Source: a virus (taxonomy: Duplodnaviria > Heunggongvirae > Uroviricota > Caudoviricetes). Taken from it: a DNA stretch of 53,880 nucleotides. Shown here one piece after another: positions 26,675-27,607 of the stretch. The notes beneath the pieces were generated by a model that did no database searches, was not told where the DNA came from, and saw only the letters and a list, made by a program, of their open reading frames with translations. How positions within the stretch are numbered: position 1 is the stretch's first letter; each line of letters begins with the position of its first letter. The stretch is taken from IMG/VR virus record IMGVR_UViG_2617270943_000003, positions 1-53,880 of that record; one strand, written 5' to 3'. The position numbers and the translations under genes were made by a program.

Positions 26675-26770
26675 ATGGATGCTTATGCAATAGCCGGATT
26701 GATCGGTGTTTCTGTATTCCTGGTGTGTTTTGTTATCGCTGTACTGATAGCCACAAAGAGCAAATGTTAG
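26675..26770 (+). CDS. Hydrophobic micropeptide 1 of 11 (31 aa)
   Basis: MDAYAIAGLIGVSVFLVCFVIAVLIATKSKC; GAGG 5 nt upstream. Confidence 0.4.
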   Translation: MDAYAIAGLIGVSVFLVCFVIAVLIATKSKC

Positions 26771-26778
26771 GGGTGAGT

Positions 26779-26877
26779 ATGGGCTTTATTGATTTATGCC
26801 TTGCGTGGTTGTTCGTCGCTGCCTTTATAGCTGAACTGATTATCGTAATTCTATTTGGTAAAGGTGAGTTATGGTAG
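26779..26877 (+). CDS. Hydrophobic micropeptide 2 of 11 (32 aa)
   Basis: MGFIDLCLAWLFVAAFIAELIIVILFGKGELW; GGGGTGAG upstream. Confidence 0.4.
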   Translation: MGFIDLCLAWLFVAAFIAELIIVILFGKGELW

Positions 26878-26945
26878 ACCCGCTCGTTATCCTTTCCTTA
26901 TGCGTCGCTGTATGGCTGGCGATCATGATATTCATTGAAAGCTGA
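26871..26945 (+). CDS. Hydrophobic micropeptide 3 of 11 (24 aa)
   Basis: MVDPLVILSLCVAVWLAIMIFIES; AGGTGAG upstream; start overlaps stop of peptide 2 (ATGGTAG). Confidence 0.35.
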   Translation: MVDPLVILSLCVAVWLAIMIFIES

Positions 26946-26956
26946 AGGTATTCACC

Positions 26957-27031
26957 ATGAATATTTACGATCTCATCTGGTGGTCGTTGGTCGCCGTCAT
27001 TATCTATTTCTGGTGGAAGAATGTTGTATAG
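26957..27031 (+). CDS. Hydrophobic micropeptide 4 of 11 (24 aa)
   Basis: MNIYDLIWWSLVAVIIYFWWKNVV; GAAGGT upstream. Confidence 0.35.
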   Translation: MNIYDLIWWSLVAVIIYFWWKNVV

Positions 27032-27039
27032 GTGACGGC

Positions 27040-27138
27040 ATGGATATATTCGAATTACTGGCGATTATGTGCGGAATGATGTTAGGCACTGTCGCCATAA
27101 TTATCATCATCGGCCTTGTTATGGGTAGCATCAAATGA
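27040..27138 (+). CDS. Hydrophobic micropeptide 5 of 11 (32 aa)
   Basis: MDIFELLAIMCGMMLGTVAIIIIIGLVMGSIK; AGGTGA upstream. The track ORF 26935-27138 is an upstream read-through extension of this frame. Confidence 0.4.
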   Translation: MDIFELLAIMCGMMLGTVAIIIIIGLVMGSIK

Positions 27139-27215
27139 ACGCATACGAAATGCTATTGCTGGTGGCTGTTATTACAGTTATCGCCGTAGATTTTTATCGA
27201 GGGTTGAAAAGATGA
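27135..27215 (+). CDS. Hydrophobic micropeptide 6 of 11 (26 aa)
   Basis: MNAYEMLLLVAVITVIAVDFYRGLKR; ATGA overlap with the peptide 5 stop. Confidence 0.3.
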   Translation: MNAYEMLLLVAVITVIAVDFYRGLKR

Positions 27216-27283
27216 GAGAAGCAGACTTCTTTTGCATGATTATAGTGATCGTCATCGTTGCCGTCCTTTTAAGCGTTAACTGA
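27212..27283 (+). CDS. Hydrophobic micropeptide 7 of 11 (23 aa)
   Basis: MREADFFCMIIVIVIVAVLLSVN; GAGGG upstream; overlaps the peptide 6 stop. Confidence 0.3.
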   Translation: MREADFFCMIIVIVIVAVLLSVN

Positions 27284-27300
27284 ATCGCAGGAGGTTAAAA

Positions 27301-27369
27301 ATGAAATTGCTTGATTTCTTTTTCCTGATTGTTGCGATTGTTCTTACCATGACCGCGCTGACTCAATAG
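27301..27369 (+). CDS. Hydrophobic micropeptide 8 of 11 (22 aa)
   Basis: MKLLDFFFLIVAIVLTMTALTQ; consensus AGGAGG 7 nt upstream. Confidence 0.4.
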   Translation: MKLLDFFFLIVAIVLTMTALTQ

Positions 27370-27377
27370 GTGAATAT

Positions 27378-27452
27378 ATGGAAACTATCGAAGCAGTATT
27401 ATTCGTGTGCATCGCTGCGGTTGTTATTGTTGGGGTTATTATCAATGTCTGA
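27378..27452 (+). CDS. Hydrophobic micropeptide 9 of 11 (24 aa)
   Basis: METIEAVLFVCIAAVVIVGVIINV; AGGTGA upstream. Confidence 0.35.
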   Translation: METIEAVLFVCIAAVVIVGVIINV

Positions 27453-27513
27453 CGTCGATTTCTTAATCATAGCTATAAGTTCGCTGTTAGTCGTTATCGT
27501 TTTCTTCGCATAA
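27445..27513 (+). CDS. Hydrophobic micropeptide 10 of 11 (22 aa)
   Basis: MSDVDFLIIAISSLLVVIVFFA; start overlaps the end of peptide 9 (AATGTCTGA). Confidence 0.3.
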   Translation: MSDVDFLIIAISSLLVVIVFFA

Positions 27514-27523
27514 AGGGTAAGCA

Positions 27524-27607
27524 ATGAAAGAGCTATTCGACTGGTTGGAAGTATTAACATACTGCGCAAGTTTTGTGGCTTGCGTATATATCATCAACAA
27601 ATATTAA
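27524..27607 (+). CDS. Hydrophobic micropeptide 11 of 11 (27 aa)
   Basis: MKELFDWLEVLTYCASFVACVYIINKY; AAGGGTAAG upstream; ends 10 nt before the terminase small subunit start. Confidence 0.35.
   Translation: MKELFDWLEVLTYCASFVACVYIINKY

Follow-up and report, generated by a model that had tools for sequence, protein, structure and literature searches.

A colinear, rapidly changing array of predicted single-helix micropeptide genes upstream of terS in mEp021-group phages of Escherichia coli

In temperate Escherichia coli phages of the mEp021 / mEpimmI group, the interval between the gene for an HExxH-motif protein and the terminase gene terS is a colinear cassette array of very short genes, and the content of this array turns over rapidly among related phages. 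This turnover is our main new finding. Here, the array was analyzed in IMG/VR virus record IMGVR_UViG_2617270943_000003, whose whole stretch of 53,880 nucleotides (nt; the window) is a complete 53.9-kb phage of this group. The array occupies positions 26675-27607 of the plus strand (0.93 kb) and consists of eleven open reading frames (ORFs) that, judging by their sequences, are very probably real translated genes, each for a short peptide with one hydrophobic helix. The explanation that best covers the data as a whole, with a probability of about 0.5, is that these are late, translationally coupled genes for membrane micropeptides with an accessory role.

Composition and turnover of the array

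The comparison covered 53 related loci, 7 from GenBank phages and 46 from IMG/VR contigs found via TerS. Across these loci, the interval between the HExxH gene and terS ranged from 318 to 1154 bp and contained 2 to 12 mini-ORFs, which clustered into about 18 families; mEp021, for example, carries five cassettes and mEp554 nine. The families followed a fixed order in which each slot was either filled or empty, roughly [K/D/N]-A1-(E2)-A2-F-(O)-H-C-I-B-E-G-J-D'-L/M. A2, C, B, and L/M occurred in nearly all loci and the remaining families in 2 to 38, and 35 distinct compositions were counted. The site itself was constant: the array always sat between the HExxH gene and terS, and its first cassette always began 2 nt past the HExxH stop codon, whatever the family of that cassette.

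Array similarity correlated weakly with the similarity of any flanking gene (rho ≤0.18). When loci with an identical holin were grouped (11 to 12 loci per group), each group contained 10 to 11 different arrays (rho −0.10). Coevolution of the array with the holin was thus rejected, because the cassettes present are not tied to the holin allele.

The junctions of gains and losses mapped to the region comprising the Shine-Dalgarno (SD) sequence, the ATG, and the first codon. In mEp021, for example, a deletion of F and H fused the ATGAA of F to the ATGAA of C. The motif GGTGA-N3-4-ATGG was common to 6 of the 12 junctions. It is also that of the terS initiation region, AGGTGAATTATGG, which recurs at cassette junctions. 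Three junctions were one and the same module, TAG-G(G)GTGA-N4-ATGG. In addition, five loci (L018, L020, L037, L050, and L052) carried a tandem A2-F-A2-F duplication, direct evidence of array growth through local duplication. In the window, the nine start-to-start distances from the HExxH gene through E (26088-27378) were all 2 mod 3, which corresponds to successive −1 frame shifts. This spacing and the recurring junction module probably reflect duplication of a unit made of a junction plus an ORF.

An earlier note on this DNA, made from the sequence alone, had proposed a single diverged paralogous family. Statistical support for paralogy was obtained within four groups, {B,I,J}, {C,E,E2,E3}, {F,O,P}, and {L,M}; for the other families, no more than a common general architecture was seen. 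At the DNA level, paralogy was visible for I and B and for the starts of H and E.

Several related loci carried further elements near the 3' end of the array. In five of them (L013:3242-3500, L022, L023, L032, and L053), an extra ORF of about 48 amino acids (aa) lay between the last micropeptide gene and terS; its product, MVSNEELKMADEIRKALDAAENNETVYFSEREVEKMMDEFKLKFEKDN, is acidic and soluble-looking and matched no Pfam or PHROG entry. In loci without E and G (L003:2495-2563, L005, L006, L007, L012, L029, L031, L037, and L053), B was separated from L/M by a noncoding spacer of 59 to 69 nt with a small hairpin, GCGCAT-TTT-ATGCGC. The spacer may represent a remnant or a scar left by recombination, or it may act as a weak terminator. 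A longer member of 46 to 47 aa, MFEFIDLLMFLVCSGVLIIALMLCVYVIVMITALIYKEAKQRFKGKQ, with a basic cytoplasmic tail, was present at L002:2918-3061 and in about 10 other loci. It is not in the window, and exact copies of it, all unnamed, occur on >50 E. coli contigs.

Coding evidence and the eleven ORFs of the window

For the selection test, alleles of 15 cassette families were compared codon by codon in three frames. In the proposed frame, the ratio of nonsynonymous to synonymous divergence (pN/pS) was 0.08 to 0.36 in all 15 families and 0.22 when pooled, and in the two control frames of the identical alignments it was 0.98 and 1.45. Variable sites numbered 102, 63, and 190 at codon positions 1, 2, and 3, respectively. 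The test has power because synonymous divergence is substantial (pS ~0.27).

The earlier note had set against its own reading the case that related phages would show broken frames. This was checked with a blastn census that did not depend on ORF calls, and the frames were found to be kept, with frame-specific selection and 393 of 400 homologous cassette copies intact (98%). The seven nonintact copies trace to four events, namely, a frameshift in F, a lost start in F, an ATG-to-ACG change in G shared by four loci, and a read-through of H. Purifying selection, the intact copies, SD enrichment, and predicted membrane insertion together upheld the core claim that the ORFs are real genes whose products are short hydrophobic peptides with a single helix.

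The same data bear on the view that the interval is not a set of genes, its ORFs being chance products of a DNA site (pac or another) or of a structured RNA, or that it is one longer gene broken by sequencing errors. The interval does lie just upstream of terS, a frequent place for packaging signals, and is blank in the mEp021 record. However, the substitution pattern is frame specific, and even L, the most conserved cassette, shows free variation at its synonymous sites (pS 0.26). Identical frame changes are found again in >50 independent assemblies, and the interval had no match in Rfam at E ≤ 1. Sf6-type TerS proteins usually recognize a pac site within terS itself. The probability of this view is close to negligible.

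All eleven ATG-initiated ORFs of 22 to 32 aa described in the earlier note were present at the claimed starts and with the claimed N-terminal sequences. As also claimed, there is no other ORF of at least 60 aa in the interval apart from a single case, a 67-aa TTG read-through frame (26935-27138) that ends in ORF H. Together the ORFs take up 871 of 945 nt. Neighbors are spaced by −8 to +17 nt, and stop and start codons overlap as ATGGTAG at E2/A2, ATGA at H/C and C/I, and ATGTCTGA at E/G. The SD sequence that the earlier note placed before every ORF was found (match of at least 4 nt) at 8 of the 11 starts, compared with 20% of other ATGs in the region, and was missing before C, G, and L; C and G, however, each start within an overlap with the stop of the ORF before them (ATGA and ATGTCTGA, respectively).

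Chance expectation was set by 1000 dinucleotide-preserving shuffles of the interval. Hydrophobic ORFs of at least 22 aa numbered 10 with 84% coverage in the observed sequence and averaged 1.1 (maximum, 5) with 12% coverage in the shuffles. The minus strand of the interval contained no hydrophobic ORF. T stood at codon position 2 in 57% of the array codons. No other stretch of the window runs as long without an ORF of at least 80 aa, and nearly all intergenic hydrophobic mini-ORFs of the genome fall in this interval. Three others, of 25 to 42 aa, are isolated (6452-6580 on the minus strand and 13452-13544 and 38876-38953 on the plus strand).

This packing raises the question of whether the ORFs mainly deliver ribosomes to terS, with the peptides as harmless by-products constrained to be short and inert. 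Stop/start coupling is unbroken from the HExxH gene to terS, and the last ORF ends in the terS SD sequence. The fixed start of the first cassette, whatever its family, and the terS initiation motif at junctions also fit such a relay. On the other hand, amino acid conservation (pN/pS, 0.08 to 0.36) exceeds what is needed to stay open. Moreover, 2 to 12 cassettes suffice, so no set relay length is needed, and P22-like phages have an ordinary gene at the equivalent site. A mere relay is therefore improbable.

The ORFs of the window all lie on the plus strand. The first, A1 (26675..26770; MDAYAIAGLIGVSVFLVCFVIAVLIATKSKC, 31 aa), starts 2 nt past the HExxH stop and had a pN/pS of 0.26; its family is present in 25 to 31 loci. 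E2 (26779..26877; MGFIDLCLAWLFVAAFIAELIIVILFGKGELW, 32 aa; pN/pS, 0.28) fills a rare slot, found in 3 loci, and forms a paralogue group with C and E. E. coli records name its peptide "hypothetical" or "putative membrane protein." The near-core cassette A2 (26871..26945; MVDPLVILSLCVAVWLAIMIFIES, 24 aa) was present in 51 of 53 loci, with all 51 copies intact and a pN/pS of 0.30. F follows at 26957..27031 (MNIYDLIWWSLVAVIIYFWWKNVV, 24 aa; pN/pS, 0.29; 34 of 36 copies intact). H (27040..27138; MDIFELLAIMCGMMLGTVAIIIIIGLVMGSIK, 32 aa; pN/pS, 0.14) encodes a GxxxG motif and shows paralogy to E in the region of its SD sequence and start. C (27135..27215; MNAYEMLLLVAVITVIAVDFYRGLKR, 26 aa; pN/pS, 0.26), again near-core with ~50 loci and 51 of 51 copies intact, completes the first half of the array.

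The second half begins with I at 27212..27283 (MREADFFCMIIVIVIVAVLLSVN, 23 aa; pN/pS, 0.24), a paralogue of B and J. B itself (27301..27369; MKLLDFFFLIVAIVLTMTALTQ, 22 aa) is near-core (49 loci; 49 of 49 copies intact), has the strongest SD sequence of the array (AGGAGGT), and gave a pN/pS of 0.12. E (27378..27452; METIEAVLFVCIAAVVIVGVIINV, 24 aa) and G (27445..27513; MSDVDFLIIAISSLLVVIVFFA, 22 aa) had values of 0.32 and 0.30, respectively, and 35 of 39 G copies were intact. The terS-proximal cassette, L (27524..27607; MKELFDWLEVLTYCASFVACVYIINKY, 27 aa), is both the most polar and the most constrained of the array (pN/pS, 0.08), with 44 of 44 copies intact. L or its divergent homologue M was found in essentially every locus, and the L ORF stops 10 nt short of the terS ATG, within the terS SD sequence.

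Each peptide has a hydrophobic core of 13 to 26 residues, and each contains a 15- to 19-residue window with a negative summed insertion free energy, from −0.3 to −5.5 kcal/mol (−4.1 for the best window of A1), on the scale values of Hessa et al. 2005. These energies resemble those of IbsC and AcrZ under identical treatment; C, F, and L are marginal. The N-terminal flank is net negative in 10 of the 11 peptides and the C-terminal flank is basic in 5, polar tails measure 0 to 8 residues, and GxxxG-type motifs occur in several members. On these predictions, the peptides are likely to be single-pass proteins of the inner membrane. For the members with basic tails, the positive-inside rule suggests an orientation with the N terminus out and the C terminus in.

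Distribution and gene neighborhood

The array is restricted to a single phage lineage. A blastn search of 50,697 phage records for distant relatives found the seven mEp phages only, and the tBLASTn search proposed in the earlier note, run with the concatenated peptides at E ≤ 10, matched the same seven. Part of the array was present in 35 of 5426 complete E. coli genomes. Among TerS relatives, identity falls from ≥81% (all E. coli) to ≤51%, and none of three distant TerS contexts had an array. A generic array detector was also applied to 76 diverse loci with distant Sf6-type TerS (1.12 Mb); it found not even two adjacent hydrophobic mini-ORFs there, and mEp loci scored 3 to 8.

In databases, the array is nearly invisible. 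The interval is unannotated in the mEp021 record, and the other GenBank records call few of the ORFs, some in wrong read-through frames and all as "hypothetical." Exact look-up in a collection of 15 billion proteins returned only peptides of at least 31 aa, from E. coli entries and at best named "putative membrane protein" (that of A1 is unnamed); those of the 22- to 27-aa peptides that were looked up were absent from it. Searches of the peptides against PHROGs, Pfam, NCBIfam, and PADLOC gave nothing above noise. No such array was found in the mEp genome paper, an Enterobacteriaceae microproteome preprint, or a census of phage membrane proteins, in a literature search that was not exhaustive. 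Both variable accessory loci and small membrane proteins of phages are known kinds. As far as our searches reach, no operon has been described in which up to twelve single-helix genes of 22 to 32 codons form an array with cassette-like turnover.

In length (<50 aa), single hydrophobic helix, and lack of an enzymatic domain, the peptides are like YohP, AcrZ, MgrB, and MgtS of E. coli, which act by binding larger membrane proteins or altering the membrane state. No sequence relationship to such proteins was seen in Pfam or NCBIfam. YohP- and AcrZ-type genes are solitary, chromosomal, and separately regulated, whereas the mEp genes form a phage-borne, operonic, copy-variable array.

Membrane toxins of type I systems, one of the roles suggested in the earlier note, or prophage addiction modules built on them, are a further candidate identity. 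The peptides resemble Ibs, ShoB, TisB, DinQ, and Ldr in size, single hydrophobic helix, and composition, and some type I toxins, a group that includes Hok, also lie in tandem repeated loci. However, no curated toxin model in NCBIfam or Pfam was matched (nothing at E ≤ 1 beyond noise), and neither an antitoxin RNA from Rfam nor a stand-alone transcription unit was found. Promoter-like sites numbered 5 against 8.2 expected by chance, the antisense ones being not above chance. The head-to-tail operon packing, with spacings of −8 to +17 nt, differs from stand-alone loci with long leaders, and eleven toxins made upstream of terS would be expected to poison virion production. This identity is very improbable.

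The region of the window around the array was matched by seven GenBank phages at 90 to 95% identity, and the whole neighborhood, from the lysis genes through the portal gene, is co-oriented on the plus strand. A class II holin gene (24600-24800; PF16080), an endolysin gene (24801-25292), and an Rz spanin gene (25262-25750) are followed by the upstream anchor of the array, a conserved gene for the 194-aa HExxH protein (26088-26672; PHROG 1365, function unknown). The downstream anchor is the Sf6-type terS (27618-28103; PF20901, E = 3e-37), after which come terL and then the portal gene. The placement given in the earlier note, between the lysis cassette and the terminase, with tightly and partly translationally coupled ORFs, was thus borne out.

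A strong GC-rich terminator-like hairpin (24557-24575) lies directly before the holin gene, with a promoter-like site (24249-24276) ~280 nt earlier, a layout that recalls pR'/tR' of lambda. A second, weaker hairpin at ~25980-26008, after Rz, corresponds to TERM_6 of the mEp021 annotation. The lysis genes are therefore bracketed by terminators, as they also are in the mEp021 annotation. The array is on the same strand as Rz and ~0.9 kb downstream of it, with the terminator-like hairpin and the HExxH gene in between. The mEp021 annotation places a Q-like late regulator upstream, and the group was reported to depend on N-like and Q-like antitermination (PMC11893012). A link to Ipe, the hemolysis/cell-death protein of mEp021, was considered and dropped: ipe is mEp021_29, a 77-aa gene of the early region at 17.6 kb, and is thus a different gene 9 kb away.

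The HExxH protein is bipartite, with an N-terminal domain of ~125 aa (PHROG 1365) that is 44% identical to Orf129 of phage L and gp49 of ST64T, followed by an Ala/Glu-rich coil and a basic tail (residues ~125-194) that are specific to the mEp group. It had no sequence relative in Pfam, PADLOC, or the PDB. Homologues of the HExxH gene in P22-like phages occupy the equivalent site between Rz and terS without an array, and dec comes next; a functional link of the array to the HExxH protein was rejected on this ground. In mEp013 only (L007:2108-2593), the HExxH gene and the array are separated by an inserted gene for an HNH endonuclease; HNH genes beside terminase genes are common in phages. In one IMG/VR relative (L050:2566-2675), a frame disruption shortens the HExxH gene to 144 aa, and the nine-cassette array downstream is intact.

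A putative metalloprotease motif immediately upstream, in a translationally coupled gene, could suggest peptides that are exported or processed, either as a leaderless multipeptide bacteriocin or phenol-soluble modulin type or as substrates or partners of the HExxH protein. Tandem micro-ORFs of 20 to 35 codons, back to back in sets of three to five and each with an SD sequence, are also known from the psm-alpha operon of Staphylococcus aureus and from aureocin A70. Those peptides, however, are amphipathic or cationic and exported, with transporter or immunity genes, whereas the mEp peptides are uniformly hydrophobic with acidic N termini, and their neighbors are the HExxH gene and terS, with no exporter or immunity gene nearby. 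HExxH homologues without an array in P22-like phages, and an intact array behind a truncated HExxH gene in L050, also speak against this explanation, which is highly improbable.

Possible roles and significance

No promoters or terminators above chance were found inside the array. Because none of the former are predicted there, expression is probably late only. In the mechanism that we propose, the array would belong to the rightward late transcript, along with the lysis, HExxH, and terminase genes, and translation would be handed from ORF to ORF where stop and start codons overlap or lie close together. Each product, with its one hydrophobic helix, its short and usually acidic N terminus, and its tail of 0 to 8 residues that is sometimes basic, would insert into the inner membrane, the basic-tail members with the N terminus out and the C terminus in. 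The peptides may be individually dispensable accessory effectors, each binding helix to helix a membrane-embedded component of the host or of a rival phage late in infection, such as one that serves DNA entry or exclusion, or an abortive-infection effector that acts on the membrane. In that case, an arms race would shape which genes a phage carries. The pan-repertoire of at least 18 families in fixed slots, with A2, C, B, and L/M near constant and the others coming and going, may acquire new arrangements via duplication and recombination at the shared SD-ATG junction, which is also that of the terS initiation region.

We favor such an arms-race accessory role tentatively, at somewhat less than even odds. 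Units that come and go fast, yet are each under purifying selection, are the hallmark of mix-and-match accessory loci, and array content is independent of the phage's own holin. Anti-CRISPR loci likewise combine a fixed site with small unrelated or weakly related genes, varying combinations, and purifying selection per gene, and their aca genes are a conserved terminal member, as L/M is in the mEp array. The Tai/Ati hotspot of phi80 likewise has a fixed site, variable small genes, and per-gene selection (PMC11364771). In addition, the region upstream of the packaging module was reported as an immunity/accessory location in phi80-like phages (PMC11364771), and the site of the array upstream of the packaging genes matches it. 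The known mix-and-match loci differ in encoding soluble proteins of 50 to 200 aa with demonstrated targets, whereas the mEp array encodes predicted membrane micropeptides and no promoter of its own was found. It thus has the fixed site and variable content of an accessory locus and lacks the promoter and terminator of a classical moron.

The main rival to an arms-race accessory role is lysis timing, in which the peptides would tune holin triggering, either by antiholin-like contact with the holin helices or by a gradual drop in proton motive force. A lowered proton motive force is known to trigger holins. The array is downstream of the holin, endolysin, and spanin genes and on the same strand, and several members have GxxxG-type motifs. 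Peptides of such size and chemistry can depolarize E. coli membranes, as the 27-aa YohP does in lowering the membrane potential (PMC12719787). Actinophages of Gordonia provide a partial parallel, as their lysis genes are accompanied by a maximum of four variable genes for "holin-like" membrane proteins, in combinations that differ among close relatives and with functions that are unproven (PMC9671378). Both systems have several co-oriented membrane protein genes near a lysis module in varying combinations. However, the Gordonia proteins are 89 to 168 aa long with 1 to 4 transmembrane helices and are encoded directly after lysA (PMC9671378), whereas the mEp array has up to 12 genes of 22 to 47 aa with a single helix, away from the lysis genes and abutting terS. 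The Gordonia study stated that such an organization had not been described for phages of Gram-negative hosts (PMC9671378).

Other evidence goes against lysis timing, including the holin-modulator role suggested in the earlier note. Array content does not track the holin allele, as noted above, and a terminator-like hairpin and the 194-aa gene separate the array from the lysis cassette, its coupling being to terS. No peptide matched a Pfam holin family, whereas the true holin did (PF16080), and the tails are only 0 to 8 residues long. Strong depolarizers made together with the terminase would also be expected to harm ATP-dependent DNA packaging. Overall, a role in the lysis clock is rather unlikely.

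Several points weigh against the accessory reading and the gene assignments on which it builds. Late-only expression would fit prophage-expressed exclusion poorly and would come late for counterdefense. No peptide matched the PADLOC library of defense and antidefense systems. The four inactivation events show that single cassettes can be lost, and part of the ORF retention reflects short divergence time, as the relatives are only 5 to 20% diverged. The scale values behind the insertion energies, moreover, did not come from a prediction tool.

A bolder form of the accessory reading, which is unlikely, is a combinatorial intramembrane arsenal. Each peptide would inhibit a different membrane component of the host or a rival by means of its transmembrane helix, the possible targets being membrane-anchored abortive-infection effectors, DNA-entry channels, and the holins of competing phages. 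The cassettes would be shuffled at the SD-ATG junction to keep pace with hosts.

Eight of the eleven genes have fewer than 30 codons, and the locus demonstrates that standard phage annotation can miss an entire module of selected genes. The purifying selection seen here is among the clearest for ORFs so short. The array also constitutes a natural experiment, with about 18 families of minimal transmembrane helices in 35 or more presence/absence combinations, in cultivable and tractable E. coli K-12 phages (mEp021, mEp010, and others). If lysis tuning is true, the holin clock of a Gram-negative system would gain a new layer. Specific membrane targets, if the peptides have them, would make the array a supply of natural transmembrane-helix inhibitors and its genes a phage accessory function of a new class. 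If the arsenal reading is true, the locus would do in the membrane phase what anti-CRISPR loci do elsewhere, and it would be a visible nursery of transmembrane microgenes that arise via duplication and divergence.

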